IMG/VR virus record: IMGVR_UViG_3300036976_000004
Coordinates: 1-56,176 of that record
Origin: a virus
Taxonomy: Duplodnaviria > Caudoviricetes
Reading direction: 5' to 3' (one strand)
DNA length: 56,176 nt
Made by a program: the position numbers and the translations under genes. Below the pieces are notes generated by a model. That model saw only the letters and a program-made list of their open reading frames with translations. It was not told the origin of the DNA and made no database searches. Numbering within the stretch: the first letter of the stretch is position 1; each line of letters opens with the position of its first letter. Positions 1,810 to 55,904 of this stretch are shown here, piece by piece.

Positions 1810-1864
1810 CATAACAATAAAGGATAAGGAACGTTTTTTCAATGTTCTTTATCCTTCGTTATGT
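1810..1864 (+). repeat. Empty attC-like hairpin (ACATAAC...GTTATGT), duplicated at 7679-7725
   Basis: Self-complementary cores with arms aaggataaggaac/gttctttatcctt; near-identical copy closes the cassette at 7671-7725; may also act as terminator. Confidence 0.65.
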
Positions 1865-3943
1865 GATTATAGGAGTTACATAATCTAGATCAGCAGCAAT
1901 TACCTTAATTGTTGCTGTATTGTTTATATCTGTTTCTATTTTTTCTATCCAACCAAACTTAGTAGGTGAATATTTAATCAACCCTTTATTTATTGATTCA
2001 TCTCTTAATATAGAGACTTCATCATCATATAAAGGTATACCTTCAGCAATATAATATTCATTTAATATGAATGGATTCTCAAGACTAGATATTAATATAT
2101 CTTCACTCTCTACAATTGGCGATATTTCAGAATTTAGTTGAGTTTTTAAACTACTGTTTTTATCAGATGTCTGCCATTTAATGTATTTAGATTCTTTATA
2201 TTTCAATCCACTTCTTAAGGTTCTACCCTTTCTTAATAAGTTGCGCTTAGGTGTGTATTTCAAATTATAAGAATTAGAACTACCTAAACTGAACTCAACT
2301 AAGCTAAAATCTTCATCAGTTTCAGCAATAAAATTACTCCCATCTCTTAATGTTTTCAAAATAAATATATCATCATCTCCCTTAACATCTTCAGTTGGGT
2401 TATTTATAATAGGTTTCTGCCTTAACAGCATCATACCTCGAGTATCTCCCCTTAACTTAACTATATTATTAAATTCATTGTCAATTACTTTAACTGGTAA
2501 TGAGAATAGAGAACTTATATTATACTCCTCCAAGCCTTGATTAGCTTCATAATCAAATTTATTATACCCTGTTTTCGCTGAATTATAAAAATATTCTGGT
2601 ATAACTTCTCTCTTTATATATCTTTCATCTATTCTATCTGATATATCTAATATAACGTTGTCATTGAAAAAATATCTAATATCCTCGATTACAACCTTAT
2701 CTACACCTCCTATTTTTTCAACACCTAATCCTAAATCGTATATAGAATTCATAGTATCAAATAAATTGTCTAATGAAGTTGCAAAAGATGTTATTTCTAA
2801 TCCTCTTAATTTTTTTCCTATAAATATATTAGCTAATTCCCCATCAGTTGTATATGTAGTTAATGGTGTGTCTGTTCTTCCGAAGAAGTCAGATTTGAAA
2901 GGATTAGAGTTTCCTGTAATTAATTGTGATATCTTTAAAAAGCTTTCGTATATCTGATATGATGTTATGAATAATTGCTTTAACGGGTCAACCTCTTCTG
3001 TTGCTTTTAAGAATCCATCATCTATATTGAATTGATTTACGTCAACACCTGGTTCTGTTAATGTAATTCTTAGTTGTAATTTAAAAGTGTCCCCTGAAGC
3101 AATAGAAGTAGAGAATTCAGAAAAAGAAAAATTAAAGTAATGAGTAATATCATCAGATGTTGATATTATTAAATCATCTGTTTTTACAATTGAAGTATTT
3201 TTATAAAGCCTGTAAGTTCCTGTAATTGTTGATTCATCGCTGAGAACTATATTTCCTTCTATTTCAGTGGTAAATACAATATAACCATCATTAGCAATGC
3301 TATCAATAAATTTACCTGTTGAAAACTCCGTATCTTGAGCGCCTATTATATTAGATTGTGTTAGTTCTAAATCAACGAATGTAGTAAATGTCTGACCAAC
3401 TTGTGTTAAATCTGTGATACTGTTTGCGTCCCAATCAGCAATATTTAATATGAATTGTTCAGGGATTTTCAGACTATTAAATGGTATTGGTGATAATATA
3501 TCACCATCAACAGAAACATTTGATAATAAGTTTACATTTAATTTAGACCTGTTTTTTATTATCTCTTTGAACCCAATTTCAATTACCTGACCTATTACTA
3601 CTTTGTTATCTTCTTTATACGTGGTGAAATCATATTCACCTAAATATATATCATCATAATTCCCTGAATTAAAATTATACTTCTGAATTAAGATAGTAGC
3701 TACACTATCTATACCAGTTGTTTCGTATATAGTTTTTAAATTCTCGTATCCAGCACCCTCATAAAAAGAAAGTTCTACTTTAGAATATTTAGTTGTTATA
3801 CCTTTAAATTTAGAATGCCTTTGTATTACCAGATTCTCTTTATATCCATCAGGAGCCTTATCAAGTTCTATAGCGTTGATAAAGAATCTAAGTTCTTTAA
3901 ATTGATCTTCGTTTAAGGCTCTTAAATCGTCCTGTCTACCCAT
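1859..3943 (-). CDS. Tail tip/baseplate hub-type structural protein
   Basis: 694 aa, beta-rich, under late-class promoter; resembles Bacteroidota siphovirus tail-tip proteins. Confidence 0.55.
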   Translation of the reverse strand: MGRQDDLRALNEDQFKELRFFINAIELDKAPDGYKENLVIQRHSKFKGITTKYSKVELSFYEGAGYENLKTIYETTGIDSVATILIQKYNFNSGNYDDIYLGEYDFTTYKEDNKVVIGQVIEIGFKEIIKNRSKLNVNLLSNVSVDGDILSPIPFNSLKIPEQFILNIADWDANSITDLTQVGQTFTTFVDLELTQSNIIGAQDTEFSTGKFIDSIANDGYIVFTTEIEGNIVLSDESTITGTYRLYKNTSIVKTDDLIISTSDDITHYFNFSFSEFSTSIASGDTFKLQLRITLTEPGVDVNQFNIDDGFLKATEEVDPLKQLFITSYQIYESFLKISQLITGNSNPFKSDFFGRTDTPLTTYTTDGELANIFIGKKLRGLEITSFATSLDNLFDTMNSIYDLGLGVEKIGGVDKVVIEDIRYFFNDNVILDISDRIDERYIKREVIPEYFYNSAKTGYNKFDYEANQGLEEYNISSLFSLPVKVIDNEFNNIVKLRGDTRGMMLLRQKPIINNPTEDVKGDDDIFILKTLRDGSNFIAETDEDFSLVEFSLGSSNSYNLKYTPKRNLLRKGRTLRSGLKYKESKYIKWQTSDKNSSLKTQLNSEISPIVESEDILISSLENPFILNEYYIAEGIPLYDDEVSILRDESINKGLIKYSPTKFGWIEKIETDINNTATIKVIAADLDYVTPIIT

Positions 3944-4002
3944 ATCGCAAAGTTACTTAATTATTTAGAATGTTTATAAATAAATTCTTAACTTTGCGAT
4001 AT
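3942..4002. promoter_or_regulatory. Symmetric bidirectional late promoter
   Basis: atatcgcaaagtta (3942-3955), box 3963-3981, taactttgcgatat (3989-4002); 14-bp perfect inverted repeat. Confidence 0.85.
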
Positions 4003-4014
4003 AAATAGTTTTAT

Positions 4015-5424
4015 ATGAGTTTTGTAAGCAAGATCAAAAGCGGAATAGCTAAATCTTTATTCGGGATAGATGTAGATATAATCAGAAGGGGTGGGATAAG
4101 GTTAGGAGGGTTTAGCTATTCAGGAAGAAATACACCTGTTTGGGATAACATACTAGAGGCAAGCTATCAGATCAATCAGTATGAGCAAAACCCTATCTTA
4201 CATGCTACGCTTAATATTATTGCTGATGCCGCGTCAAATGCTATTTATCAGATAAAAGACTCAAAGACGGGTGATATCATACCGGAATCAGAATACACAG
4301 AAGATCAAAAGAAAGCATTAAATCTATTTACAAAGCCAAACCCTCACCAATCAGGGAAAGAATTTGATAGGCAGTTTTCAATCCAATATAACACGTTTGG
4401 GAAAGGATATCTATACGGCCTTAGTCCTTCATCTTTCACGTTCGATTATAAGAATGTAGAAGTATTAAACACTCTTTATCCTTACAATGTAGCTCCGGTC
4501 TTAACAGGTAATAGAATAACAGCAACAGAATTAAGTGAGATAGTATCAGGCTATGTATATAAGGAAAACGGCAGGGAATTAAAAGAAGTATTACCACCTG
4601 AGCAAGTATTATTACTCAATGAGGCTACAATATCAGAAGATGAGGAATGGTTCACGGGTAAATCTAAATTAATCTCACTGCAAAGGCCGTTGTCTAATAT
4701 TATGGCAGCTTATGAGGCTATTAACGTAACTCTAAAGAATAGAGGTATAGAGGTTATATTTACCCCTAAACCAAGCCCTGAAATTGCAGGCATACCATTT
4801 CAACCTCACGAGAAAGATTCTTTAGAGGCTGAATTAGAATCCTACGGGAATTTAGAAGGGCAAAAACGTTGGATGGTTGGTAGCCTTCCGGTTGACGTCA
4901 CACAGATCACATCTAAAATGCGTGACATGATGCTGTTTGAAACTATAGCCGCTGATGCTATAGCTGTAGCACACGCTTATGGAGTGCCGGAGGTTCTTGT
5001 AAAGATGTATATTCAAGGTGCTACATTCGAGAATCAAGAGATATCAGAGAAAAGATTATACCAAAATACCATCATTCCATTTGTGAACGAAATTACAGAA
5101 TCTAGGAATGAATGGTTGAAGATAAAAGAATCAGGCTTTGAAGTTGTATCGAGTTTTGACCATATTCCTGTATTGCAGAAAGACAAATTAAAAGAAGCTC
5201 AAGCAGACGATAAGAAAGCAAGAAAGAACATTGAACTATTCAAAGCGGGTTTGGTGAAAGGGAATGTAGTGATAACATCTCAGGGATTACCAGAGGATGA
5301 CCAAATAGGAGATAAGTATATTTGGGAATTAGACGACAGACAAATATTCATCATACTAGGAAGAGAATCGAAAGAAGACCCACAAGAAAATAATAATCAA
5401 AATAATAACGATGGCACAAGTTAA
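4015..5424 (+). CDS. Portal protein (HK97 family)
   Basis: 469 aa; LFTKPNPHQS, YNTFGKGY, GKSKL, AVAHAYGVP and ATFENQE motifs. Confidence 0.88.
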   Translation: MSFVSKIKSGIAKSLFGIDVDIIRRGGIRLGGFSYSGRNTPVWDNILEASYQINQYEQNPILHATLNIIADAASNAIYQIKDSKTGDIIPESEYTEDQKKALNLFTKPNPHQSGKEFDRQFSIQYNTFGKGYLYGLSPSSFTFDYKNVEVLNTLYPYNVAPVLTGNRITATELSEIVSGYVYKENGRELKEVLPPEQVLLLNEATISEDEEWFTGKSKLISLQRPLSNIMAAYEAINVTLKNRGIEVIFTPKPSPEIAGIPFQPHEKDSLEAELESYGNLEGQKRWMVGSLPVDVTQITSKMRDMMLFETIAADAIAVAHAYGVPEVLVKMYIQGATFENQEISEKRLYQNTIIPFVNEITESRNEWLKIKESGFEVVSSFDHIPVLQKDKLKEAQADDKKARKNIELFKAGLVKGNVVITSQGLPEDDQIGDKYIWELDDRQIFIILGRESKEDPQENNNQNNNDGTS

Positions 5425-6500: not shown

Positions 6501-6737
6501 ATGAAAAAGATATTTATTTTATTCCAATTATTTATAGTTATAGTATTAGTTATACTGACTATATCAACAGGTGGATACATGTCTTATTTAATTATTAAAT
6601 GGGTTATAACGCTAAACAATCTTGGTATAGAGATTTATATACTTATTTAGTTAGGTGGTTTATTGATCATTACAGCTATATGGCTTCTTGCAATTATGCT
6701 GATTAAATCATGTCTAGGTGAAGATATAACAGGTTAA
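6501..6737 (+). pseudogene. Small membrane protein interrupted by in-frame TAG (6648-6650)
   Basis: A-rich leader; hydrophobic frame continues past the TAG to TAA at 6735-6737. Confidence 0.5.
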
Positions 6738-6898
6738 ACAACGAATTGGTGTATGCGGAGGCTGAGGAACGAAGCTTACGTACGACACCGTGTTAGTAGC
6801 TGGCGGCTATTTACCCACCACCGCCCGAACGAAGCGCTAAAAAAAGAAAAGCGAAGCGTGGGGAGAAAGAATTTTATTAATAACTAAATATTTGAATT

Positions 6899-7573
6899 AT
6901 GCCTAATAACATTAAAAACAGATTAGAGATTATTGGAACTGAAAAGCAAGTAAATGAAGTATTGGACTTTTTACGTGGTGAACCATCTGAGGAGGGGTTC
7001 GAAATGTTTATTGACTTTGGTAAAATTATCCCAATGCCTGAGAGCTTAAATATTAGTAGAAATAGTTGGGTTATGCCATTGGAAAATCAATTCTCTGCTA
7101 ATATCAAAATGAAAGCTCACATTGATGAGATTAAGGAATTCTGCGAAAAGAACCCAAGCCGTAAAGAGCAAACTATTAACAACTTTATTGCTGGTATTAA
7201 AAATTACATTGAGTACGGACACGCAACTTGGTATAATTGGTCTGTAGCCAATTGGGGAACTAAATTGAATGCCTACCAACAAGAAAAGCAAGAAAGCAAT
7301 GCGATAATGTTTGAAACTGCTTGGGCTGGCGTACCTGATTTGATAAACAAACTAAGTGTAAAGTTTCCAGAAGTTTCATTTACCTACAAATGGAGCGATG
7401 AAGATACAGGTTATAATTGCGGAATTGGCTCATATAAAAATGGAGAATTAGAAATTAATTGTCCAGAGAATTGTAGCCGTGAAGCCTACGAGTTGGCATT
7501 TGAGCTTAGACCACATTACAAAGAGGATTACAAACTTGTTGGTGATACTTACGAGTGCATTGACGAGGACTAA
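6899..7573 (+). CDS. DUF1281/YubB ferredoxin-like family protein (cassette cargo)
   Basis: MPN..N.L start, IIPMPESL, WYNWSVANWGTK and FETAW motifs. Confidence 0.7.
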   Translation: MPNNIKNRLEIIGTEKQVNEVLDFLRGEPSEEGFEMFIDFGKIIPMPESLNISRNSWVMPLENQFSANIKMKAHIDEIKEFCEKNPSRKEQTINNFIAGIKNYIEYGHATWYNWSVANWGTKLNAYQQEKQESNAIMFETAWAGVPDLINKLSVKFPEVSFTYKWSDEDTGYNCGIGSYKNGELEINCPENCSREAYELAFELRPHYKEDYKLVGDTYECIDED

Positions 7574-7629
7574 CCCTCAATGGCTGCGATAGCAGACAAA
7601 GCGGGCGGGGCTTTTCTTTTTTCTTGTTT
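7571..7629 (+). repeat. ~58-bp GC-rich 3-prime element shared with rtcB (23620-23677, minus strand)
   Basis: taaccct(c)aatggctgcgatagcagacaaagcgggcggggcttttcttttttcttgttt; identical except a 1-nt indel. Confidence 0.9.
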
Positions 7630-7729
7630 CAATTAAGCAGAAACTTAAATACGAGAACCGAACCCCGCTTGCTACTAAATAAAGGATAAGGAACGTTTTT
7701 TAATGTTGCTTATCCTTCGTTATGTAATG

Positions 7730-10700
7730 TTAATTTAACCCGCTGATTTTCTTATTTATATAGTTTTTGTAATAATTTCCATCCCTCTCTATTATTGTAC
7801 CATTTCTATAATTAAAATGATATTCTTTCTTATTCTGGATAGCTTTTACGACTTCCTTGTTTGAATCTATCAAAGGCCGTATGTCTATTCCTTCTGATTT
7901 CATATTAACATTAGCCATGATAGCCTCTGTTTCAGGATTAGACCAAATGCGCGTACCTTTAGGTAACAGTGATTGTGTGCGTTGATTAGCCATGAAAGTC
8001 TCACCTGTTGGAAGTTTAACAAGCTCTCGACCTTTCTCACCATATTCAGCCATTGTAGTAGATTTTAACCCTTTCTCTCCTGTACCTTTCGCAAACTTAG
8101 GAATAGGTTTAGCAAGTACAGCAGCAGTTTGTAATGCTCCTGAAGCAATAATTAACGGTATAGCAAGAGGACTTAACACACCTGTCTGAGCTTGTACTTT
8201 TAAGATCGCTTGAGCCGTATTAATTCCAATATTAAAGAGTGCTGATGCCTTATCCGCAATAGCTTGCTTTCTCTTAATCTCAGCAACTTTCTTTGCAGCC
8301 TGTTCTTCACTTAATAATCCTTGTTTTTGTTTTTCTTCAATATCTAATAACTCGGATTCCCTTATAGAATTACCAAAGCTAAATAAAGTATTGCCGACTT
8401 CTTGAGCAATGTTTAATAATTCTTGTTGTAATTCTCTCTTTCTTTCCGCGGCTCTTTCAGCGTTTAAAATTTCAGCATCAGTCTTTATATTGTCAATCTC
8501 TAGCTCTTTATCGGCAAGCTCTTGAAGTAGTTCTAATTTTTTAGGGTTAGAATCTTCTATTAGCTCTATTTCAGCCCTTAAAGTATCTACCTGATTCTGT
8601 AGGATAGTGTCATCTCTATCAGCGTATATTTTAGCTACATTATCATTAAATTCTTTTTCTTTTATCGTACCTTCTTCAAACAATCTTACTTGAGCTATCA
8701 ACCTTTTATTAGTTGATTCCTCAACCGCTTGATTCTGCCTATCTAATTCATTTATGAAAAAGTCAGTCGTTACAGGTGTGTTTGTCTCTACAAAGTCATT
8801 AGTTTCTGTAATTAAATCCTCAAGCTCTTGTAATTGATCTGAGTAAGATTCTTCTGTTAAGTCTTTAATCTCATTATTACTTTCCTTGATTGTATCAGCT
8901 AATATTTTCCTATGCTGTTTTTCGAATTCAATCCTATCTTTCCTGTTTTTTTCTTCTAATTTAGATTGATCTTGAGCTGATTTATCTAATGCCTCTATAT
9001 TAGCCTGTAAAACTTCTTCATTTGTTAATACACTTGGTAACTGTTGTTCGCCACTTAAATCTCCATACAAGCTTGATAAAACATCTTCAACACTTGTCGA
9101 TCCTTCTAATATTGTATTAAAATAATCTTCCGCTGATTTATCTGCTTTTGCTAATATTGTACCAGCAGGTGAAACGCCAGCTATAAATGACTCGAAGAAC
9201 CCAAGCTCTGTGATATTGTTAAGAGTAAAACTTAAAGAATCTAAAGCAGTTTGTAAAAATCCTGTAGATTCTTTTCCACTTAAAATCAATCCATCCCAAG
9301 CACTACCTAACCTATCTATTGCACCTGCTAAAGTGTTTTCCACAACATCAGCCATCTTTTTAGCTGAACCATCCACACCCTCATAAGCAGAAGCAAGTAG
9401 ATTAGCTGCATCTTTGTTAGCTGAAAGTGTTAGTAATGCTGCCTGACCCCTTAAATCAATCAATTCCTGAACTTCTGCAAGTCCTAACCCTTTACCGTTA
9501 AGCTCAATAAATGCACGTTGTAAACTGTCTGCATCTGTTACAGTAAACCCAAGTTCTTTGCTAAGATTTGAAGAACTATCAGACAGCGCAATAAGTACGT
9601 TTTTCAATCCTGTACCACCAATAGACCCTTTGAGACCTGCATCAGCTAATTGACCTAGTAGTTTAGTTGTTACTTCAATAGGGATATTGGCAGCTTTTGC
9701 GAGAGGCGCAACAAGCTTCATTGATTCCGCGAAGTTCTCCAAATCTAAAGCTGAAGTTGTAAATCCTTTAGCCATTACGTCAACTACTCTCTGGGTCTCG
9801 GAAGCATCTAATCCAAAACCTCTTAAGGTAGCACCAGCAATTTCAGCCGATCTTGCCAAATCTTCACCTGTAGCAGTTGCAAGTTGTAATGTTGCTTCTG
9901 TTGCATTTACAATCTCACCCGCACTGAACCCAATCTTTGAAAATTCTAACTGTAAATTAGCGACCTCAGTAGCTGTGAATTTAGTACTTTGTCCTAGTCT
10001 AAGTGCATCCTGTTCTAATGCTTTGAATTGCTCAGAAGATGCACCGGAAATAGCACTAACACGTGCCATTGCTTGCTCGAAGTCTTTAATAGTATTTAAA
10101 GAACTTCTAAGAACTTGGAATATTCCCGCGGCTCCTAAGCCGATACCCATTGCAGCTCCTAATCCTTGGAATGCACTAGCGTAGTTACCTACGTTTCTCT
10201 GGCTTTGCCCTAATCGACTGTCAAGTTTCTTTAATCTATTATCTAATTGGTTTACTTCTCTTGCTACAGCTTTGAATTGTTTGCTATTCGTACCGAAAGC
10301 TATTCCAGTGTTTTTAGCGGCTAATCTTAATTCATTTAATCTTTTAGTATCTTTAGCGTAAGCACCTTGTAGCCTGTCGGCTTGTTTTTCTGATAATCCA
10401 AATTGTTTAGCTAAAGCTCTATTAGCGTCACGAGCTTCTTTTGTTTTGATTATCTCTTTTTGTTTCAGCTGTAAGGCTTTATCTCTTTGTCTTTGTAGTG
10501 ATTGTCTTGCTTGTTCTTCTTTTTTTATCTGCGCTTCCGATTCCTTCCTTGCTTTAGCTTCTTTTTTTATTTCTTCTTGTAGCTTCTTTTCACCTGTAAT
10601 CTCTTCTTTTATAGCTGCATCCTTAGCTTTAATAGCTTCTTTTACTTTCTGCAATTCTTTAGCTTGCTGAGTACTTAGATTAGCTAATTTCGCTTTAGAT

Positions 10701-10930
10701 TTTTCTAACTCATTTTCAATTCTTTTAGCTTCTTTCTGAGCTTCATTGAGCTGTTTATTTTTATTCGTGGCAGTCTCAGTACTTTTATTTAGAGTACGCA
10801 AAGAAGTATCTAATGATTCAGAAGCTTTAACAACCTGATCCAATCCTTTTACAATATCATTAATAGACCCTTTTAACTTATCTAAACCTTTTAACGCCTC
10901 CGGTGAAACTATCTTATCTATGTCTGCCAT
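7730..10930 (-). CDS. Tail tape measure protein (TP901-type)
   Basis: 1066 aa helical; FEQAMARVSAISGA, STKFTATEVA, AGLKGSIGGTGLKN; C-terminal FAKGT...GEKGRE. Confidence 0.92.
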   Translation of the reverse strand: MADIDKIVSPEALKGLDKLKGSINDIVKGLDQVVKASESLDTSLRTLNKSTETATNKNKQLNEAQKEAKRIENELEKSKAKLANLSTQQAKELQKVKEAIKAKDAAIKEEITGEKKLQEEIKKEAKARKESEAQIKKEEQARQSLQRQRDKALQLKQKEIIKTKEARDANRALAKQFGLSEKQADRLQGAYAKDTKRLNELRLAAKNTGIAFGTNSKQFKAVAREVNQLDNRLKKLDSRLGQSQRNVGNYASAFQGLGAAMGIGLGAAGIFQVLRSSLNTIKDFEQAMARVSAISGASSEQFKALEQDALRLGQSTKFTATEVANLQLEFSKIGFSAGEIVNATEATLQLATATGEDLARSAEIAGATLRGFGLDASETQRVVDVMAKGFTTSALDLENFAESMKLVAPLAKAANIPIEVTTKLLGQLADAGLKGSIGGTGLKNVLIALSDSSSNLSKELGFTVTDADSLQRAFIELNGKGLGLAEVQELIDLRGQAALLTLSANKDAANLLASAYEGVDGSAKKMADVVENTLAGAIDRLGSAWDGLILSGKESTGFLQTALDSLSFTLNNITELGFFESFIAGVSPAGTILAKADKSAEDYFNTILEGSTSVEDVLSSLYGDLSGEQQLPSVLTNEEVLQANIEALDKSAQDQSKLEEKNRKDRIEFEKQHRKILADTIKESNNEIKDLTEESYSDQLQELEDLITETNDFVETNTPVTTDFFINELDRQNQAVEESTNKRLIAQVRLFEEGTIKEKEFNDNVAKIYADRDDTILQNQVDTLRAEIELIEDSNPKKLELLQELADKELEIDNIKTDAEILNAERAAERKRELQQELLNIAQEVGNTLFSFGNSIRESELLDIEEKQKQGLLSEEQAAKKVAEIKRKQAIADKASALFNIGINTAQAILKVQAQTGVLSPLAIPLIIASGALQTAAVLAKPIPKFAKGTGEKGLKSTTMAEYGEKGRELVKLPTGETFMANQRTQSLLPKGTRIWSNPETEAIMANVNMKSEGIDIRPLIDSNKEVVKAIQNKKEYHFNYRNGTIIERDGNYYKNYINKKISGLN

Positions 10931-35856: not shown

Positions 35857-35938
35857 GCTGTTTATTTTTTAGTAACGTTTCACAACTTGAGATATAAAAA
35901 ATTGAAATAACTTTTCATATCTATGTTTTATAGGGCAT

Positions 35939-36280: not shown

Positions 36281-36415
36281 AATAAAAACACCCTATAACA
36301 ATGTATATAATTCAGTGGTGTTATAAGGTCTATTTAAACCACTGTGCAGTTTTGTAATTTTATCGGTATGCGAAAAGTCCTGCAATCAATAGCCACCGAA
36401 ATCATATACTAAACG

Positions 36416-36610: not shown

Positions 36611-36697
36611 CTCTATATCAATTTATTAAGTTAATACTATTTTTGTAGTGTAGTGGGTTCAATCCCAAACTACACTTACAATTTGCGTTAGGCACAA

Positions 36698-37012: not shown

Positions 37013-37087
37013 TATATCAAGTATTTAAAGTTTTGTAATTCTAATTAAAAGCCAACAGGCGCATATACAAACCTTTGTAAAACATTA

Positions 37088-37312: not shown

Positions 37313-37538
37313 TAAATTCCAGCCATTTAACCGGGTCTTGCCCTTCGTGTTTTAAGCTATTGATTGCGGTTGCTATTACATCCGCTAACTCTTCGTAGTA
37401 TTCGATATCTGTGTTACTAGATTCAACTTCATTTACTTATTCTTTTAATTTTTCAATAAAATCGAATCTGGAAGTAAGCGGAGTAATACAACCCCGCTTT
37501 ACTATACTATTGTAATTTCTTTCTATTAATTCTCGCAT
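37275..37538 (-). pseudogene. MazG-like pyrophosphohydrolase with in-frame TAA (37437-37439)
   Basis: ..FIEKLKE*VNEV...YEELADVI..; the stop replaces the second Glu of the EExxE motif. Confidence 0.65.
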
Positions 37539-38713
37539 TGATCTAATAAGCTTGTTTGTTTGTTACCTTCCTTGAATCTATTATTAACTTGTTCAAGATT
37601 TATTTTTGATTGCTTAAAATAGCTATCTTTTAATTCAATTCCAATAGCCTTACGACCTAGTGAGACAGGACTATAAACTTCTGATCCAACACCCATAAAT
37701 GGAGTTAAAACAACTTCACCAGGATTTGAATATAATTCTACTAATCTATCAATCACATCTAATTGTAAAGGGTGAACGTGTTTCTCGTCGTCATCTTCCT
37801 TTGAATCACGGAAAGGTAATACATTATCAATTCTTATGTCATCCCAAACAGACGATGCGTAACGCTGCCAGATGTAATGACTTAATTTATTACTTTTTGG
37901 GTCTTTATGATCTTGATACTTATTGTTCAAGTGTTCCCATAATTGAGATGCATTCAAATTTGATTTATTAGCATTATTCCAAGCTTGTAGAATGTTTGGT
38001 AATATTGGAGTTTCACCAAAATACCTTTTTAATCCGTTTGGATGTGTTACCGGAACTTTGTTTTCTCCTTTTTTAGTGAAAATTAATACATAATCAGGCA
38101 TTGCGGTGAAGCACTTTGTTGAATCTTCTACAATAAACTTATGCATTAATGATTGAACCATTGTACGCATACGAACTTTTAAAGGCTCTTTCCATATCGT
38201 TATACGGTTTCTGTATTCAAATCCGTATTTCTCGTGTATTTTAATTATTTCGTGTGGAAAATCCCAAAGACGGCAAGTGTTATCAAAAACATCTGTACAG
38301 TGAACTGCGGATATTCTACCGGGTTTTGTTACCCTCGCAATCTCTTTTACAAGGAATTCATATTGATCTAAGAATTGTTCTTTTGTTTCACAGTTTGAAA
38401 AATCATTTTCAGAAGAACTGTAATTGTATAATCCAGCAAACGGAGGGGAATATATTGATAAATCAACACTTTCATTTTCTAAAGTTGGTAATACATATAT
38501 GCAATCTGAATTATAAATCGCATAGTTTTCTGTGATAATTTGGTCTTTTACTTTATTTTCAGACACGTTTAAACATTCTGTTATTTCATCTTCTGACACT
38601 TCAAAACCAGCTTTATTTACTCCTTTTTTTATTTTATTAACCATTTGTTTATCTATCTCTTTTATTTCTTCAAGTGTTTTAGGACCTTGTGTAGTCTCAA
38701 ATTTCTTTTTCAT
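37526..38713 (-). CDS. DNA amino-methyltransferase (N4-C/N6-A, beta class)
   Basis: SPPF motif IV; H..P and PFMGVGSE motif I; GIELK. Confidence 0.88.
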   Translation of the reverse strand: MKKKFETTQGPKTLEEIKEIDKQMVNKIKKGVNKAGFEVSEDEITECLNVSENKVKDQIITENYAIYNSDCIYVLPTLENESVDLSIYSPPFAGLYNYSSSENDFSNCETKEQFLDQYEFLVKEIARVTKPGRISAVHCTDVFDNTCRLWDFPHEIIKIHEKYGFEYRNRITIWKEPLKVRMRTMVQSLMHKFIVEDSTKCFTAMPDYVLIFTKKGENKVPVTHPNGLKRYFGETPILPNILQAWNNANKSNLNASQLWEHLNNKYQDHKDPKSNKLSHYIWQRYASSVWDDIRIDNVLPFRDSKEDDDEKHVHPLQLDVIDRLVELYSNPGEVVLTPFMGVGSEVYSPVSLGRKAIGIELKDSYFKQSKINLEQVNNRFKEGNKQTSLLDQCEN

Positions 38714-38716: not shown

Positions 38717-40084
38717 TTATAAAAATTTAGGTTTAATAATTTCTTGATTAAATTCTTTCTTGGTTTCGGTGTATGATCTATTAACGTTTTTAGTTAAATT
38801 CTCATACAACTCAATAGCCTTTTGCGTTTTTTGCTGCAAAGATTCTAAAACTCTTGTTTGCCCGTCAGAGATAACCATATCAATAGTAACATCTCTTTTT
38901 TGCCCGAATCTCCAGAATCTACGGATAGCTTGGTAATACTGTTCATAACTCCATGTAGGGAAAAATACAGAATGATTACAATGTTGCCAGTTAAGCCCCA
39001 TTCCAGTCATCTTAGCTTTAGTTATAATCCTTTCGATGTTCCCGTTTGCAAAATTCAGTAGAATATCTTCTTTCTTTTCGATTGACATACTGCCTTTAAT
39101 TTCTACCGCATCCTGATCTAATTCATTCAACAAATCACTTTCATTATTCAGATTACACCAATAAACAGATGTTTTATTTTCTGCTAATTGCACAGCTTTT
39201 TCACAACGATCTTTAATAGTTTGAACTTGTTCGTGTCTTACTTCTGTCATTGTTTTAGCTATAGGTGTGAACATTTGAACTTGTCCGTTAACATCAATTA
39301 ATGATTGATTTTCTACAACATGTTTAACTGTATCTAGTTTCGGTAAAATATATCTTTCGTCTGAAAATCCAATATCTGACGGCATTTTAACCATAATAGA
39401 CCATTGATTTACCCATGCAAAGAAATCCTTTTCAGCGTGAGGTTTTAAATAGTATTTTTCACCAATATTACGAGCGTTACTATCAGATGAATTTTGATTG
39501 TTTTTAAAGAATTTACCTAACATATCCATATACCCCATATACCCTAACGCCTCCGAACTTGTTCCAAGCTCGATAAAATCGTTAGGACTTGGTGTAGCTG
39601 TACTAAGAAATCTATAAGGAATTTTTTTCACAAATGCGGTCACCTGGTTTTTAATCTTACCGTCAAAGTTTTTAAGGATTGAGCTTTCATCAAGAATTAC
39701 AGCTTCAAAATCTGAACTATTGAAATAATGTAATCTTTCGTAGTTACAAATAACTATTTTCTTTGTGTAATTACCATCTTTCGAATATTCAATATCATCA
39801 ATACCCATTTTTTCAGATTCAATTAAGAATTGAAACGCTACAGCTAAAGGAGTTAGGATAAGTACAGGTTTATTCGTGTGACGGATTATATTGTTAGCTA
39901 TTGATATTTGGATTAATGTTTTTCCTAATCCAGTATCAGCAAATACAGCCATACGACCTTTGTTTACAGCTTTTTCAATTATATATCTTTGAAAATCGAA
40001 AGCCATATCAGGTATGTAGTTTACTTTTATCCCTTGATCGTTAATTGAATGCTTTTTTGATTCTATAAATTCTTGGTATTTCAT
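38717..40084 (-). CDS. SF2 (SNF2-like) helicase
   Basis: DTGLGKT, LDESS, STATP, GLNWQ and QAIRRFWRFGQ motifs. Confidence 0.88.
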   Translation of the reverse strand: MKYQEFIESKKHSINDQGIKVNYIPDMAFDFQRYIIEKAVNKGRMAVFADTGLGKTLIQISIANNIIRHTNKPVLILTPLAVAFQFLIESEKMGIDDIEYSKDGNYTKKIVICNYERLHYFNSSDFEAVILDESSILKNFDGKIKNQVTAFVKKIPYRFLSTATPSPNDFIELGTSSEALGYMGYMDMLGKFFKNNQNSSDSNARNIGEKYYLKPHAEKDFFAWVNQWSIMVKMPSDIGFSDERYILPKLDTVKHVVENQSLIDVNGQVQMFTPIAKTMTEVRHEQVQTIKDRCEKAVQLAENKTSVYWCNLNNESDLLNELDQDAVEIKGSMSIEKKEDILLNFANGNIERIITKAKMTGMGLNWQHCNHSVFFPTWSYEQYYQAIRRFWRFGQKRDVTIDMVISDGQTRVLESLQQKTQKAIELYENLTKNVNRSYTETKKEFNQEIIKPKFL

Positions 40085-40279
40085 ACTTCGTTTTTGTTTC
40101 AGCTAATATACTACTTATTTAGTTTAGAATTAATCTATATAACGATTTTACAACTTAATATATAAAAAATAGCGGCCGTTATGCTCCAAACAATCTAATG
40201 AGTTATTACTTATACGTTGTACACCGCTACTCAAGCCTGATTTTACCGCTACTTTTCATATCTCATTAGTTAGGCATAA

Positions 40280-40483
40280 TTAAGCTGGCGAAATATCGCA
40301 GTTCCATTGCCATAGCTTCATCATATCATCCCACCAAATGCTTATATCCTTGGTTTTATATCCGCATTTCTCAAGTAAGTGCTTTCTTATGTCTTCCTCT
40401 TTTACTGGGTCATTTGTTTTGCCCTCTGCAAACCCATCACACGGGTTATCTCGTATTTCAAATTCATCTCGTTTTAGTTCCAT
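40280..40483 (-). CDS. Hypothetical protein (cassette cargo)
   Basis: Bounded by complementary cores. Confidence 0.6.
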   Translation of the reverse strand: MELKRDEFEIRDNPCDGFAEGKTNDPVKEEDIRKHLLEKCGYKTKDISIWWDDMMKLWQWNCDISPA

Positions 40484-40622
40484 AATAAAATAACTATGCC
40501 TAACAATTTGTAAAAATAATAGCCTAGTTAGGCGGTTTATTTAAGCTATTACTGTAATTAATTATCGTTTCAGTTATTCGAATTTTTCGCAACTAAACAT
40601 AGCTACGGGCGTTACATTCCAT

Positions 40623-40958
40623 TTAATCACGCATGTACCACGGTTTATAAACTTGCTCTTTTTTCTTACAGTGTGCTCCTAACCCATCATGCAATTCCCC
40701 ACAGCTATTGCATCCATTACTTTGTATGGTGTGCTCGCAATCATCACACAAAGGAGCACCACATACCAGTCCTATTGTTTCGGGGCACTCTCTTGTTGCT
40801 TGTGCTCCACAGCTTACACATTTTATTCCTTTGTGTTCTTCGCAGAATCCACTTTCATCTGCTTCTTTTCCACATTTGCCAACCCACGCCTTATCAAAAC
40901 GGCATGTAACACTATGTAAAGTGCATGGCTGTTCGGTATTTGAATTTTCTGTACTCAT
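40623..40958 (-). CDS. Cys/His-rich putative zinc-binding protein (cassette cargo)
   Basis: Multiple CxxC/CxxH; N-terminus ..PCTLHSVTC encoded by attC arm. Confidence 0.6.
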   Translation of the reverse strand: MSTENSNTEQPCTLHSVTCRFDKAWVGKCGKEADESGFCEEHKGIKCVSCGAQATRECPETIGLVCGAPLCDDCEHTIQSNGCNSCGELHDGLGAHCKKKEQVYKPWYMRD

Positions 40959-41047
40959 ATCTAAAACTGCTTTAAGTTTTGAAATTATGTGGCTTTGTTT
41001 AAGGCAGCCACAACACCTTACATTTTCAAAGATAACACTATTATAGT

Positions 41048-46005: not shown

Positions 46006-46941
46006 TTAGAATAACTCAGGTAAAGATAATTTTACTTGTGCAAAAATAAAATGCTGCAATGTTTTATAATTAATAGTAGGGTTTTTAAATTCCTTAACAA
46101 AATTCCAACTCTCTTCCCTTACAACATCATAATAAACTGTATTTAATAGTCTTGGTATTTGTTTACTGTTAAATCCACCTTTATCAATTTCAATCTTAGC
46201 TTTCACTTTTTCGCAAAGTGCTGTAGTTACATATTTCTTTGCAATTTCTTCTTCTACCATCTTTTTACCTTCAACTTTTGGAGTACCCATTACTTTAGAA
46301 TGTCTTTCTTTAAATTCAGCAGTAACTATTTTAGCCCATGTTTGTCTACCGTATTTATTGAAGAAATCATAATTTTTAATTACAATACCTTCACCAGTCC
46401 CTTTACCGTCTTGAATTAAGAATACATTCTTTTCAAGCTGATTAATGAATTGCTCATAGCTTGCACGCTCAATTATAGCTAATGGTGGTATGTAATCAAT
46501 ATTATGTTTCTCTAGTAATGGTTTGTATTCGTGGTAATGTAAGTATTTGTGCTGACTATCTCCTTCATGTTTAATTTCGCTTTCATCTTTATCTATAGCA
46601 ACATCAAATACATAGAAATGCCTCCAAGAATCTTCTCTATATGTTTTTAAACTATGAGGGACTAACCATTCACCGAACAATCTATGCGTAGGATTCTCTT
46701 TTAGATAAGCTATTAAATTATCTTGCTCTTTAGCCCATTTACAAAAACCTGCATTATCATTTTCAATAGTTAAATGCCTTTTACGGCTCCCGGCTTGTAA
46801 TTCTCCGTTTTCATCAATCCAAATACTAGCATTTGTTCCGTCGATTTTAGGGAAAATATAACATTCACCTAATTCAATGTTTTCTACTTCGGTAGTGCCG
46901 AATCTTTCAATGTGTTGATACTTTTTAAATTCTTTTCTCAT
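46006..46941 (-). CDS. ATP-dependent RNA ligase family protein
   Basis: KIDGTN motif I; FGEW, FYVFD, EGIVIK and AKIV motifs. Confidence 0.75.
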   Translation of the reverse strand: MRKEFKKYQHIERFGTTEVENIELGECYIFPKIDGTNASIWIDENGELQAGSRKRHLTIENDNAGFCKWAKEQDNLIAYLKENPTHRLFGEWLVPHSLKTYREDSWRHFYVFDVAIDKDESEIKHEGDSQHKYLHYHEYKPLLEKHNIDYIPPLAIIERASYEQFINQLEKNVFLIQDGKGTGEGIVIKNYDFFNKYGRQTWAKIVTAEFKERHSKVMGTPKVEGKKMVEEEIAKKYVTTALCEKVKAKIEIDKGGFNSKQIPRLLNTVYYDVVREESWNFVKEFKNPTINYKTLQHFIFAQVKLSLPELF

Positions 46942-48070: not shown

Positions 48071-48305
48071 ATAAGCTTTCTTTTTTGTCGATGCATTTAT
48101 ATGTAATTCTTTCTTCTTCTCTTAATTCGCTTAATTTACGTCTGATTGTGTCGGGGTGTACAGTTTTTCCATACGCAATCCTGATACGCCACCCAAAACC
48201 GTATAAATCGCTACATACTTCTTCTACTACATCATGTAGGTAGAATCTGTTATGAATTTTATCCCAAACTTTGATAATTGTTCTCTTTACTGCTTCGTGT
48301 TTCAT
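48057..48305 (-). CDS. Winged-helix-like hypothetical protein
   Basis: PDTIRRKLSELRE motif; first gene of leftward operon. Confidence 0.55.
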   Translation of the reverse strand: MKHEAVKRTIIKVWDKIHNRFYLHDVVEEVCSDLYGFGWRIRIAYGKTVHPDTIRRKLSELREEERITYKCIDKKESLYEKG

Positions 48306-48407
48306 AATATTTTGTTTTGATTTAAAGCAAAATTAATAAATAAAATAATACAAAACTAATTATAGCTTTATTTGTATGGATTCTAAATAAAACCTTATCT
48401 TTGTAGT

Positions 48408-48471
48408 GACTCTTCTTTCATTTCATTTTGTTTTTATACCTCGGCTGGATTAATTTTCAGTCGAGGTTTTT
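48408..48471 (+). ncRNA. Candidate late small RNA (~64 nt)
   Basis: Gap-7 promoter (box 48370-48388, tatctttg 48396-48403), no ORF, terminator 48438-48471. Confidence 0.6.
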
Positions 48472-48509
48472 ATTTATATTGATTCTTAATAATAATGTTA
48501 GTATGTTTG
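48472..48509 (+). promoter_or_regulatory. Gap-11 promoter heading cassette locus E
   Basis: atttatattgattcttaat 48472-48490; tatgtttg 48502-48509. Confidence 0.7.
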
Positions 48510-48637
48510 TAATGTTTTACAACGGATAGTAATATGACCTGTGCGACAATTACGCACGAGCTACACTTGAATAAACGCAATTATGCACCTTGCGCTATTC
48601 ATTTTATTTATTGTTGTGGTGCGTTAATTTAAAAACA

Positions 48638-48850
48638 ATGGAAACTTTTAGATGGAAAACAGATTACTACCACGCTGACAATAATACAACGATGTTAGAA
48701 TACTTAGATTTATTTTTGCCAGAAGATGCTATTGAAATTATGGTTGATGGCACTTACGCTGAAATAGAAAGAGACGGTGTTAAATATGCAGTACACGCAA
48801 GTGGTGACGGTGATTCATTCAACCATAAAGTTGAGTTTGAGGAACTATAA
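48638..48850 (+). CDS. Acidic hypothetical protein (cassette cargo)
   Basis: ATG 48638 after aaaaaca; stop abuts GCACCACAAC. Confidence 0.65.
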   Translation: METFRWKTDYYHADNNTTMLEYLDLFLPEDAIEIMVDGTYAEIERDGVKYAVHASGDGDSFNHKVEFEEL

Positions 48851-49005
48851 TGCACCACAACGTTAAATATATGGCAAGTTGGGTATTAAGATGTGCTACC
48901 CTATCGAGCCACAACAAAGTAAATTAACAGCACAAATATTGCAAACTGGCACACGCCCCCAATTTGCTATATACATTGTTATAGGGCGTTTTTAATACTA
49001 AAACA

Positions 49006-49326
49006 ATGATTAATTATAACACAGAATTTCTGATTAGAGTAAAGGTAAACGACTTTTATCCTAGCAATTGGTACACTTACCGCACAGAGCGAAAAATAAT
49101 AGGTTTTATTACAAGAAAAGCAGGGATTTACAGAGAGGTATTTGAAGACTATTTAGGTGAAAAAGTGCCAAAAAACCATACTTTAAAAGATGGTGTTGTT
49201 TATGAAAACCCTGAATGTATATTATGCTATGCTGACGGAAGCGAAAAAACCTATTATTTTGACAATAAAAGTGATGCCGTTGAATTTGGAGCAAAGTTTA
49301 CCGTTGGTGATAAATGGGTGAATTAA
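49006..49326 (+). CDS. Hypothetical protein (cassette cargo)
   Basis: Bounded by complementary cores. Confidence 0.65.
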   Translation: MINYNTEFLIRVKVNDFYPSNWYTYRTERKIIGFITRKAGIYREVFEDYLGEKVPKNHTLKDGVVYENPECILCYADGSEKTYYFDNKSDAVEFGAKFTVGDKWVN

Positions 49327-49420
49327 ATGCCCTATAACTAAACATAGATATGAAAAGTTATTTCAATTTTTTATATCTCAAGTTGTAAAATCTTTATTTA
49401 AACGAAAAAAATATAATATT

Positions 49421-49675
49421 ATGAAGAATTATTTAAAATTAGCGATGTCTTTTTTAATTTTATCAGGGTTGTTAACATTATCAACTATTGTAATTAAAAA
49501 TGATATAGATAAATATACTGATAAGTATAAAAATAAAGTTGGTGATAAGATTGTTTTTAAATCCGATACATTAATGATAATTGATTATTCCATAATCAAA
49601 AATACATTCACTTTGGATAATGGTAAAGAGATTAGTTTTTACTTGGTATATCAATTAAATATTGTTGATGAATAG
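49421..49675 (+). CDS. Membrane-anchored hypothetical protein
   Basis: N-terminal TM. Confidence 0.55.
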   Translation: MKNYLKLAMSFLILSGLLTLSTIVIKNDIDKYTDKYKNKVGDKIVFKSDTLMIIDYSIIKNTFTLDNGKEISFYLVYQLNIVDE

Positions 49676-50584: not shown

Positions 50585-51211
50585 ATGGGAACCTATAAAA
50601 CATTATCGTCAATAGACGTTAACAATAAAACCGAAAAGAAGAACGGATTAATATATTTATCATGGGCTTATGCATGGGGGGAGACTAAAAAGAAATATCC
50701 AGAAGCTAAATATGAGATTCTTAAAAATGAACAAGGATTACCATATTTTGAAAGTGAGTTAGGTTATATGTGTTTTACAAAAGTAACTATAGATAATGAG
50801 ACTCACGAAATGTGGCTTCCTGTTATGGATGGGGCTAATAAAGCTATGAAAAAAGAATCTTATACTTATAAAGTAAAGGATTGGAACGAATCAAGGGCAC
50901 AGGGTAAAGATGTCTATAAAGATAAAACAGTTGAAGCGGCTACAATGTTTGACGTTAATAAAACTGTTATGCGTTGCTTAGTTAAGAATTTAGCTATGTT
51001 TGGTTTAGGGCTTTACATTTATGCTGGTGAAGATTTGCCAGAAGTTCAGGAATCAACATTAGAAGAAGCTTTATCAGATGTTAAAGCAGTGAAAACAGAA
51101 GCGGAGAGAGGTTCGGTTTGGTCACAACATAAACACTTACAATCTAATGAAGAATTTGTTACTGCAATTAAAAAGAAAGCTAAAGAAATAAAAGAAAATG
51201 AAACGAAGTAA
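50585..51211 (+). CDS. Sak3/DUF1071-type single-strand annealing protein
   Basis: YLSWAYAW, MWLPVMD and NKT.MRCLVKNLAMFGLGLYIYAGEDLP motifs. Confidence 0.85.
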   Translation: MGTYKTLSSIDVNNKTEKKNGLIYLSWAYAWGETKKKYPEAKYEILKNEQGLPYFESELGYMCFTKVTIDNETHEMWLPVMDGANKAMKKESYTYKVKDWNESRAQGKDVYKDKTVEAATMFDVNKTVMRCLVKNLAMFGLGLYIYAGEDLPEVQESTLEEALSDVKAVKTEAERGSVWSQHKHLQSNEEFVTAIKKKAKEIKENETK

Positions 51212-52484: not shown

Positions 52485-52489
52485 TAATG

Positions 52490-52875
52490 TTTTACAACGG
52501 TTTGGCTATGTGTTGTTGCCAAACGATAAACTTTCAAAACAACACTAAACCTTGACGGCAATAACATATAGCTGTTATTACCGCCAGTTAATTTTAAATT
52601 AAATGACTGTTAAGCAACTTATAAAAGAACTTGAAAAAATGCCACAAAACGCAAAAGTTTATTATCAGGACTTTGACGCAGGAGAATTTGAAATATCATC
52701 TTCCCCGTCTTATGTGTGGATAGTTGACTTTAACAAAGCTACCGACTATGAAAACAAAATGCAAAACGACTTTAAAATGAAAGGAAAGGTTGTTTGTATT
52801 CACGCTTAATTGGCGGTAACAGTAAAAAGATATGAATAGTACGAAGTATTATTTATATCTTAAGTTGTAAAATCG
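52490..52875 (+). mobile_element. Integron-like cassette locus F (one cassette)
   Basis: Opens TTTTACAAC 52490; TTACCGCCA(52578)/TGGCGGTAAC(52820); closes GTTGTAAAATCG 52864. Confidence 0.8.
52603..52809 (+). CDS. Hypothetical protein (cassette cargo)
   Basis: MTVKQLIKELEKMPQNAKV motif. Confidence 0.65.
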   Translation: MTVKQLIKELEKMPQNAKVYYQDFDAGEFEISSSPSYVWIVDFNKATDYENKMQNDFKMKGKVVCIHA

Positions 52876-54679: not shown

Positions 54680-54681
54680 TT

Positions 54682-55473: not shown

Positions 55474-55477
55474 ACAA

Positions 55478-55511
55478 CAAAGATACGAATTTATTTAGAA
55501 TTGGTATAAAT
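55478..55511 (-). promoter_or_regulatory. Late-class promoter (gap 7), leaderless
   Basis: caaagata 55478-55485; atttagaattggtataaat 55493-55511. Confidence 0.8.
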
Positions 55512-55673
55512 TAAATGTTTGTGTAATTTCAATTAGATTTATTCTTAAATTTGTATAAAACAATAACAAACTAAGATGCAACTACCACATATGCGGTGTG
55601 GGTAAGTTGCCATTGCTTGTTGAATGACTTACCAACTTTAATTAGAAATATTAAATAACTTAAATAGTTAATT

Positions 55674-55853
55674 ATGTGGAAAAAAGTAACAGAATGGCCT
55701 CCAACAAAGAATAGGGTGATTATGACTAAAATTGAAGATGAAAATGGAACAAGGAACGAGCAAGAATTAAAGTTTGATGGTAAACTTTGGTGGTTGCCTG
55801 ATGGTAGTATGTATGTATATTACATACCTACACATTGGAAAAGTTTGGTTTAA
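55674..55853 (+). CDS. 59-aa DUF551-like protein (not in ORF track)
   Basis: MWKKVTEWPP...PTHWK motif; followed by GCGCCTAAC. Confidence 0.65.
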   Translation: MWKKVTEWPPTKNRVIMTKIEDENGTRNEQELKFDGKLWWLPDGSMYVYYIPTHWKSLV

Positions 55854-55855
55854 TT

Positions 55856-55904
55856 GCGCCTAACGTTGAGTAAATTTTATTTTTTATATACTCTTGTTAT
55901 GAAC
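55856..55904 (+). mobile_element. attC-like hairpin (locus G)
   Basis: GCGCCTAAC..gagta..tactc..GTTATGAAC. Confidence 0.5.

Follow-up and report, generated by a model that had tools for sequence, protein, structure and literature searches.

Hairpins around small genes in a phage of presumed flavobacterial hosts are probable recombination sites of an integron-like system

We analyzed a viral genome of 56,176 bases (IMG/VR record IMGVR_UViG_3300036976_000004; the whole stretch is referred to here as the window), which is classed as linear and has a CheckV completeness of 100%. Our subject is a set of imperfect hairpins that open with AAC, close with GTT, and stand between small open reading frames (ORFs). 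A first-pass annotation, made from the sequence alone, had placed such hairpins at eight loci and had read them as a dispersed system of integron-like gene cassettes in a phage with no integrase. Four loci (35878-37087, 40144-41037, 48497-49392, and 52485-52874) share a layout, and we call them pads. Their parts are given below in gene direction, with E values from a covariance model of the hairpins termed R1 (described below; these values are rough) and, for some elements, z scores for folding as single-stranded DNA (ssDNA) relative to shuffled sequence.

36950-37087, minus: pad opening, with the promoter-like box TAGATTTG, TAATGTTTTACAAAGG, and the first junction element (E = 3.4e-4)
36948-36956, minus: 3′ arm of that element, GTTAGGCAC, within the called start of the ORF at 36698-37012
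36698-37012, minus: cassette ORF of 104 amino acids (aa), no family; bracket GTTAGGCAC..GTGCCTAAC (36687-36695)
36565-36693, minus: junction element (E = 6.2e-6; z = -2.86)
36416-36610, minus: cassette ORF of 64 aa, with 26-nt arms GTTAGGCAAC..GTTGCCTAAC that are 88% complementary; the stop codon lies within the inverse core
36293-36421, minus: junction element, the best match in the window (55.5 bits, E = 1.2e-10)
35939-36280, minus: cassette ORF of 113 aa; bracket GTTATAGGGT..GCCCTATAAA
35878-35931, minus: pad-closing element ending GTTGTGAAA (E = 0.47)
40904-41037, minus: weak first element after the box TATCTTTG (E = 0.13), overlapping the start of the ORF at 40623-40958
40623-40958, minus: Cys-rich ORF of 111 aa
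40498-40573, minus: short element with GCCTAAC..GTTAGGC (E = 1.8; z = -0.01)
40269-40504, minus: cassette with GTTAGGCATA, a 67-aa ORF (40280-40483), and TATGCCTAAC
40144-40275, minus: pad-closing element ending GTTGTAAAATC (E = 4.9e-5)
48497-48619, plus: pad opening, with the box TATGTTTG, TAATGTTTTACAACGG, and the first element (E = 0.74)
48613-48861, plus: cassette with GTTGTGGTGC, a 70-aa ORF (48638-48850), and GCACCACAAC
48855-48984, plus: junction element (E = 2.6e-7)
48978-49338, plus: cassette with GTTATAGGGC, a 106-aa ORF (49006-49326), and GCCCTATAAC; also present core to core in two other contigs (L201 and one from run X3, below)
49332-49392, plus: pad-closing element ending GTTGTAAAATC (E = 0.17)
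52485-52580, plus: pad opening TAATGTTTTACAACGG and element (E = 4.2e-6; z = -2.12)
52578-52819, plus: cassette with TTACCGCCA, a 68-aa ORF (52603-52809), and TGGCGGTAA
52814-52874, plus: pad-closing element (E = 0.17; z = -3.16)

In gene direction, three pads open with ..TTTG TAATG TTTTACAA(C/A)GG (at 37087, 48510, and 52485), and the pad at 41037 opens differently. The promoter-like TAnnTTTG boxes, probably promoter boxes of the host type, are found only at three pad openings and not in each element. Each pad then holds one to three small ORFs. About 20 nt 5′ of each ATG lies GTT followed by 6 to 7 specific bases, and at or inside the stop codon of each cassette lies the exact complement of this 5′ core, ending in AAC. 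The junction elements, 50 to 200 nt long, have the form [core′]AAC-N6-GTATATG..loop..TATATAC-N3-GTT[core]. At its end, the pad has an AGATATG..ATATCT hairpin and then GTTGTAAAA, complementary to the opening. Matches to the opening motif TAATGTTTTACAAMGG lie at 37072 (minus), 48510 (plus), and 52485 (plus), and those to the closing motif TATATCTYAAGTTGTRAAA at 35878 (minus), 40146 (minus), 49372 (plus), and 52854 (plus); none of 100 shuffles held three matches to the former, and none of 100 held four matches to the latter.

Three of the cassette brackets are perfect over 10 nt: GTTGTGGTGC (48613-48622) with GCACCACAAC (48852-48861), GTTATAGGGC (48978-48987) with GCCCTATAAC (49329-49338), and, on the minus strand, GTTAGGCATA (40495-40504) with TATGCCTAAC (40269-40278). 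Five more (36290-36299/35927-35936, 36562-36571/36415-36424, 36948-36956/36687-36695, 52578-52586/52811-52819, and 6792-6800/7671-7678) are imperfect or shifted, or lie partly within a called ORF start. An exact GTT..AAC 8-mer bracket surrounds 3 of the 95 ORFs in the window, compared with 47 of 8,930 mispaired flanks, or 0.5 expected per 95; no structural or replication gene among the 95 has an exact bracket. The first-pass claims of complementary cores around individual small genes and of an opening shared by three loci and a closing shared by four thus held up, and the outcome that would have spoken against them, core pairs equally frequent around housekeeping genes, was not seen. The called starts of three cassette ORFs fall within the preceding element and read through its GTT core (36565-36610, 36950-37012, and 40904-40958); either the true start lies further downstream or the site also codes for the N terminus.

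The cargo is largely without assigned function: 9 of 10 cargo ORFs matched no Pfam or PHROGs family, the exception being a DUF1281_C protein, and the protein of 35939-36280, used as a query, had no relative in viral contigs. Identical bodies and cores surround unrelated ORFs. For example, the flanks of 35939-36280 are also found around 49006-49326, and the two proteins are unrelated. Framed by the folded sites, about ten small accessory genes of the window look like swappable cassettes.

A link to bacteria came from an ORF-less "mini cassette" (GTTGTAAAA, 11 nt, TTTTACAAC), a 22-nt piece of which matched two flavobacterial genomes. The chromosome of Formosa sp. A9 carries at least 15 copies of the element in an array of about 38 kb, all on one strand, with the ORFs on the opposite strand. 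Each GTT core is the complement of the AAC core in the following element, and between two of the elements a type I restriction R subunit is encoded. The array, at about 1,645,000-1,686,150 of G006:C1 (L192-L194), also contains an internal duplication of about 2 to 3 kb. It ends at a gene for a 390-aa tyrosine recombinase (L194:8976-10148), co-oriented with the cassette genes and preceded by two ORFs of no assigned family.

We built the covariance model R1 from 11 repeats of the Formosa array only (alignment A1), which share a 24-pair closing stem with double changes in 11 pairs and several constant G.U pairs. With filters off, R1 gave 39 matches in the window at E ≤ 10. Seven had E < 0.001 (36293-36421, 36565-36693, 36950-37080, and 40148-40275 on the minus strand; 48855-48984, 52492-52580, and 1809-1864 on the plus strand), and about eight were weaker (35880-35931, 40498-40573, and 40904-41037, minus; 6736-6798, 7677-7725, 48517-48619, 49332-49388, and 52814-52870, plus). 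These matches lie at six of the eight loci of the first-pass annotation. The other two drop out: 24907-25050 was matched only at E = 9 on the other strand, which does not support membership in the family, and 55856-55904 had no R1 match and fits the pattern only loosely. In a control at E ≤ 0.01 with the same filters, R1 found 5 matches in 81 other phage loci (784,673 bases) compared with 6 in the 56,176 bases of the window. The features outside the pads are as follows.

6736-7725, plus: larger cassette with a weak element (6736-6798; E = 0.64), GTTAGTAGC, a 224-aa DUF1281_C gene (6899-7573), GCTACTAA, and a hairpin (7677-7725; E = 5.8)
1809-1864, plus: compact hairpin with CATAAC..GTTATG cores, twin of 7677-7725 (E = 5.6e-4; z = -5.91), abutting the stop codon of a minus-strand structural gene
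24907-25050, minus: ORF-less GTTGTGGTG..AACCACAAC hairpin and degenerate half element upstream of rtcB (z = -3.04)

Across nine phage records, R1 matched 52 places, and an alignment of 50 distinct phage elements indicates a conserved structure. In total, 91.0% of the cells pair, compared with 71.4% in shuffles; the stem is 97.5% paired, and 13 of its 16 pairs show double changes. The covariation score was 0.494 compared with 0.144 after shuffling (0 of 500 shuffles reached 0.494) and at most 0.095 in slid controls; the alignment was fitted to the model, which favors structure, and both kinds of control were far lower. Of the G.T pairs, three persist in 44, 45, and 49 of the 50 elements; on the opposite strand they would be C.A mismatches. 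The AAC and GTT are invariant or nearly so in the 50 phage elements (columns 5 to 7 with 255 to 257) and in the 11 bacterial ones. Folding energy alone is weak evidence: when 17 stretches of the window were folded as ssDNA, z was -2 or lower for 6 and between -0.01 and -1.55 for 11. A search of Rfam, which holds no attC family, found no family that matches the elements.

The association with a recombinase extends beyond Formosa. R1 found dense arrays in four further bacterial genomes and, in a sample of 121 Flavobacteriaceae genomes, elements in 107, many of which have at least 28 candidates. Relatives of the recombinase are present in 89 of the same 121 genomes. Of 14 genomes without an R1 match, 3 have the recombinase, 6 lack it, and 5 were not among the matches listed; together, 11 of the 14 were counted as lacking it. 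Among the matches listed, we identified by eye 24 loci at which elements follow the recombinase, no more than 20 kb downstream on its contig and with the opposite strand label; at one exceptional locus (G118), the recombinase and an R1 hit have the same strand label. The best NCBIfam match of the Formosa recombinase was a XerA/"integron integrase" model (215.4 bits; cutoff, 220), and it scored 208.9 bits, in two stretches, against the integron integrase model TIGR02249 (cutoff, 265). It aligned in one collinear stretch with the structure of XerA (5hxy) and in two stretches with that of IntI4 (2a3v), which suggests that the IntI-specific insertion is absent. The enzyme thus seems to be Xer-like and apparently not an IntI.

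To read presence and absence of cassettes, we relied on a pair of Polaribacter phages, P12002L and P12002S (L169 and L189), on the IMG/VR contig L201, and on contigs from sequencing runs, because no near-identical phage was found (a helicase search gave 80 loci at 78 to 83% aa identity, and the best match of a search with the Sak protein was 64%). P12002L and P12002S, which are 99% identical, differ by insertions and replacements. Of six breakpoints between them, ..AAC|g(t) is the site of four, the far end of the 6- to 7-nt spacer that of one, and an unrelated 5′ leader that of the sixth. A crossover at AA|C is compatible with four of the five breakpoints that are linked to an element and incompatible with one. 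The cassettes that differ between the two phages carry DNA methyltransferases, which would fit a counter-restriction cargo. In the window, the cassette at 48978-49338 is bounded at both cores: it is 92.8% identical to L201 over 48976-49338 only, beginning two bases ahead of GTT and stopping at the C of AAC, and a 550-nt contig from wastewater run X3 matches 48977-49338 but differs in sequence beyond either end. The L201 homologue is flanked by junctions that belong to a different sequence family, one not matched by R1, which suggests that another, unrelated type of junction body follows this core grammar too; this other family (AAC accgaaatatcatcaagcgatagcgacccgtagggttga..) is repeated on both sides of the homologue, at 1150-2000 of L201. 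Relatives therefore partly bore out the expectation that boundaries fall at the cores, in that the window cassette recurs from core to core and five of the six P12002 breakpoints lie at the AAC or spacer, and partly did not, in that no single crossover fits them all. The junction body at 48859-48996 had many short contigs that are 85 to 95% alike, with summed depths of 130 to 400, in wastewater and landfill metagenomes (runs X3 and X4), and is a high-copy repeat there; for habitat, shares below 0.2 in the remaining runs were disregarded. An apparent joint of opposite strands between 48504 and 49390 (run X1) was not an excision; the contig comes from another locus of the same phage.

The polarity of the elements differs between phages and bacteria. 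In an integron cassette, the ORF precedes attC, the strand that folds (bottom) runs antisense to that ORF, and the crossover is at G|TT (AA|C on the bottom strand). For 113 gaps of bacterial arrays, the folding strand was antisense to the ORF in 84 and sense in 2 (23 had no covering ORF, and 4 were skipped). For 40 phage gaps, it was sense in 25 and antisense in 2 (10 without a covering ORF, 3 skipped), and one of these two exceptions is an artifact of the ORF rule at 40623-40958. The phage cassettes are thus mirror images of the bacterial ones. The same DNA strand folds whichever way it is transcribed, which points to single-stranded DNA, and not RNA, as the form in which the hairpins act. 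One insertion in P12002S consists of the spacer, the body, GTTACCTGGC, a methyltransferase ORF, and ..GCTAA; hence, the body moves on the 5′ side of its gene, opposite to the order in an integron cassette.

The same grammar is found in other phages. Of 82 loci that a 16-mer scan brought up in viral contigs, most are probably matches by chance, and we used only those that also have the TATATACATTGTT box. In unrelated viral contigs found by scanning for the opening motif, stretches dense in small ORFs carry many copies of the box TATAYACNTTGTT, on the strand of the genes. Together, the window, P12002L, and six stretches from five IMG/VR records (eight records in all) hold 54 such boxes with at most one mismatch, 38 of which are followed by an ORF; the inverse 9-mer (0 to 1 mismatch) lies within -12 to +40 nt of the stop codon at 22 of these 38 sites, compared with a chance expectation of about 0.005 per site. 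Upstream of the box are AAC, 5 to 7 nt, and GTATATG. Both P12002L and P12002S carry the same motifs and brackets.

As the first-pass annotation had claimed for tyrosine recombinases, no recombinase is apparent in the window itself: a six-frame search found no tyrosine recombinase (PF00589), serine recombinase (PF00239), or HUH/Y1 transposase (PF01797) at E ≤ 1. PF00589 was also absent from five other element-rich phage records (G001 to G005), and the annotations of P12002L and P12002S list no recombinase. Nor is there any window protein with relatives in all of P12002L, P12002S, G002, G003, and G004. We dropped transposition of the IS200/IS605 (HUH) type, since the window has no Y1 transposase. 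The window does encode a Sak single-strand annealing protein. This and the other recognizable genes of the window are as follows.

4015-5424: portal
7730-10930: tape measure
23675-24853: RtcB (rtcB)
27511-27584, minus: tRNA gene with anticodon CAU (74.4 bits)
29169-30587: large terminase
37526-38713: DNA methylase
38717-40084: helicase
46006-46941: RNA ligase
50585-51211, plus: Sak single-strand annealing protein (E = 9.2e-52), the phage's own short-homology recombination function

In the GenBank phage collection, the best match of the large terminase was that of Tenacibaculum phage JQ (43.5% identical), and the helicase and methylase DNA is about 75% identical to that of Baltic Flavobacterium phages; the nearest cultured relatives are thus distant. 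For 48300-49500, the same collection gave no DNA match beyond 48-nt chance hits. The hosts are presumably marine-type flavobacteria, and the phage is of a lytic type. The first-pass suggestion that rtcB was acquired as cassette cargo was not supported: rtcB has no core bracket and shares only a 51-nt 3′ flank with the cassette at 6899-7573. This exact repeat follows the stop codon of the DUF1281_C gene (7579-7629, plus) and that of rtcB (23620-23670, minus) and resembles a 3′ module common to both genes, in which a terminator-like stem (AAAGC..GCTTT) is accompanied by a T run. We also dropped RtcB-linked RNA circularization of the bracketed ORFs, for which the only support was the presence of rtcB.

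Based on the structure and membership of the site family, the ORF brackets, and the recurrence of a cassette elsewhere with boundaries at the cores, we propose that the hairpins are probably the folded ssDNA recombination sites of an integron-like gene-capture system native to the Flavobacteriaceae, in which exchange would be carried out by a Xer-like host enzyme. On the folding strand, a site would consist of the inverse core with AAC, a 5- to 7-nt spacer, a GTATATG-type stem, a variable loop, a TATATAC-type stem, a 3-nt spacer, and GTT with the core. The four pads may act as landing pads, three of which would present a host-type promoter box, then TTTTACAAC, then one to three single-ORF cassettes; a constant closing element would end with GTTGTAAAA, complementary to the opening. 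Each cassette would have its own complementary core pair because, in a free circle, those cores would close the hairpin. Exchange would occur at or next to the AAC through a Xer-like tyrosine recombinase that the infected cell would supply; since the phages encode none, the host enzyme would be the simplest source, and the recombinase of the arrays the obvious candidate. The Sak protein may add short-homology shuffling on top.

Several observations weigh against this proposal. The E values of R1 are rough because its calibration was short, and 11 of 17 window stretches, folded as ssDNA, do not surpass shuffles in stability. The breakpoint in the unrelated 5′ leader lies outside any element, which indicates that these phages also swap genes without one, and the boundaries at the AAC coincide with the end of a conserved upstream gene, which is a confounder. 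In addition, the breakpoints fit no single crossover: those of P12002 lie at the AAC or across the spacer, whereas the window cassette recurs from core to core without the neighboring bodies. A single crossover would explain the P12002 breakpoints but not the recurrence in L201 and run X3, nor the unrelated ORFs that are enclosed by identical bodies and cores. Either both arms of the R box are used, or phage annealing proteins reshuffle the bodies by short homology. The run data, which consist of contigs only, showed no recombination product, circle, or excision joint. Finally, the phage ORFs are inverted relative to host cassettes, and the 224-aa cargo protein (6899-7573) had no relative in 201 genomes of the family with this query, an empty result that in itself shows nothing; taken together, these two points do not support a flow of cassettes from host to phage.

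The annealing protein also underlies the alternative that survives best, which we regard as unlikely. Here the elements would be repeated intergenic modules like the promoter-terminator stem-loops (PeSLs) of T4-type phages, reportedly described by Arbiol in 2010 and Comeau in 2014. They would serve as short homologies for the phage annealing recombinase, with no site-specific enzyme, and their likeness to the bacterial arrays would reflect shared ancestry or capture of host DNA. PeSLs, like the elements here, are short, repeated, structured intergenic modules on either side of small variable ORFs; they belong to the plastic parts of lytic phage genomes, where they mark the boundaries of indels. 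Besides the Sak protein, the independent assortment of bodies, cores, and ORFs fits this alternative, as do P12002 crossovers at more than one position, one of them outside any element, and there is reportedly a published precedent for such shuffling (PMC4122927; PMC2839356). However, the proposal for PeSLs involves homologous recombination and an early promoter, whereas the cores here are ORF specific and complementary, and the family also stands beside a host recombinase in many genomes. Perfect cores of 10 nt are too short, and differ too much from ORF to ORF, to act as homologies; even so, the likeness to L201 and the X3 contig ends exactly there, between unrelated bodies. Strand-specific G.T pairs and asymmetric 6- and 3-nt spacers would be needless for homology, and the conserved TATATACATTGTT box is apparently unlike the TAnnTTTG box of the pad openings.

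A function in RNA, in which 3′ stem-loops terminate transcription or process or stabilize mRNA and core pairing protects the message, appears improbable. It would accommodate the folding strand being the mRNA strand in 25 of 27 oriented phage gaps, the G.U pairs (tolerated in RNA), and the inverse cores that abut or overlap stop codons, as well as the position of the two strongest hairpins at the ends of structural genes. In bacterial arrays, however, the folding strand is antisense to 84 of 86 oriented ORFs, so that cassette mRNAs there would carry the mismatched complement. Most elements are not followed by a U tract, Rfam offers no matching family, and an RNA role would leave the core-to-core recurrence in other genomes unexplained. 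When the elements were examined as terminators, only 1809-1864 and 7677-7725 had strong stems at gene ends, most of the others being weak AT stems with no T run. These twin hairpins, which are 94% alike (ssDNA z = -5.9 and -7.4) and have 6- and 3-nt spacers, abut the stop codons of two minus-strand structural genes that are not related to each other, one for a virion protein and one for the tape measure, and have the "classical" polarity relative to those genes; they may be recombination sites or simply terminators. Chance palindromes in AT-rich DNA together with ordinary terminators can hardly account for the elements: although 11 of 17 folds are no better than shuffles, AT-only 8-mers gave 47 chance brackets in 8,930 mispaired flanks, and the loci at 24907 and 55856 fail the model, this explanation is contradicted by the independent model hits, the covariation, the shuffle controls of the motifs, and the recurrence in other sources.

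The proposed recombination sites resemble those of integrons in their RYYYAAC/GTTRRRY-type cores, in single-ORF cassettes between complementary cores with stop codons within the inverse core, and in an imperfect, strand-specifically folding hairpin with a bulge and a variable loop. They differ in that the L boxes (GTATATG/TATATAC) are not core-like, the phage ORFs are inverted, the phage has no integrase or attI, and the bacterial recombinase falls below the curated cutoffs for integron integrases and is collinear with XerA. What remains of the integron/attC reading, and of the expectation that hosts would carry matching sites and an IntI-like enzyme, is a structured family of sites that does lie beside a tyrosine recombinase in candidate hosts; the polarity is reversed and the enzyme is Xer-like.

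Two published systems come closest. Qi et al. (2023; PMC9892861) describe integrase-less attC clusters (CALINs) in virulent phages, including P12002L, and report that IntI1 recombined one of two predicted sites. As here, the phage is a flavobacterial one of lytic type with attC-like hairpins and no integrase; their case concerns two predicted sites with divergent directions in one phage. The accessible parts of that paper draw no link to flavobacterial arrays, a Xer-like recombinase, pad openings and closings, or a reversed polarity; its attC1 and attC2 may be R1 elements. By R1 (the formal CALIN definition uses an attC model), each of four loci in the window has two to four sites, and the record has no recombinase. 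Ross et al. (2019; bioRxiv 10.1101/471110) describe XerD-associated arrays with integron-like repeats in Bacteroidales, termed recombinase-associated acquired interbacterial defense (rAID-1). The flavobacterial arrays share this geometry by description (a 5′ XerD-like recombinase, codirectional genes, and repetitive intergenic sequence), whereas rAID-1 arrays belong to chromosomes of gut Bacteroidales with immunity genes, not to phages. Because the window has no recombinase, it is not an rAID-1-like array but carries sites of that kind. Beyond these two reports, we found no description of the flavobacterial element, the phage pads, or the reversed polarity in the open-access literature and bioRxiv.

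More tentatively, lytic phages of the Flavobacteriaceae may take part in a mirrored integron-like economy, in which promoter-backed pads of host-type sites, a Xer-like array recombinase borrowed from the host during infection, and a phage-specific pool of reversed cassettes would serve to share accessory and counter-defense genes among unrelated phages, such as the methyltransferase cassettes of P12002L and P12002S. This route would be site specific and would require no enzyme encoded by the phage.

Integrons are regarded as devices of bacteria and as nearly missing from Bacteroidota (the IntegronFinder 2.0 paper found almost none in Bacteroidetes), and the mosaicism of phages is for the most part attributed to homologous or illegitimate recombination. 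Here, the complete genome of a lytic-type phage holds about 13 sites of a structured family that fills most of the sampled Flavobacteriaceae genomes and stands beside a Xer-like recombinase in them. If these sites work, they would give phages a site-specific route for the gain and loss of small genes that relies on a host enzyme. The sites and a candidate enzyme are at hand and cultured pairs exist, namely, Polaribacter IMCC12002 with P12002L and P12002S, so the question is directly testable. If the sites work, their reversed polarity would also help to show how single-strand recombination couples the choice of strand with expression. The bacterial arrays, with a type I restriction subunit, and the phage cassettes, with the methyltransferases of P12002L and P12002S, would then be two sides of one exchange system.

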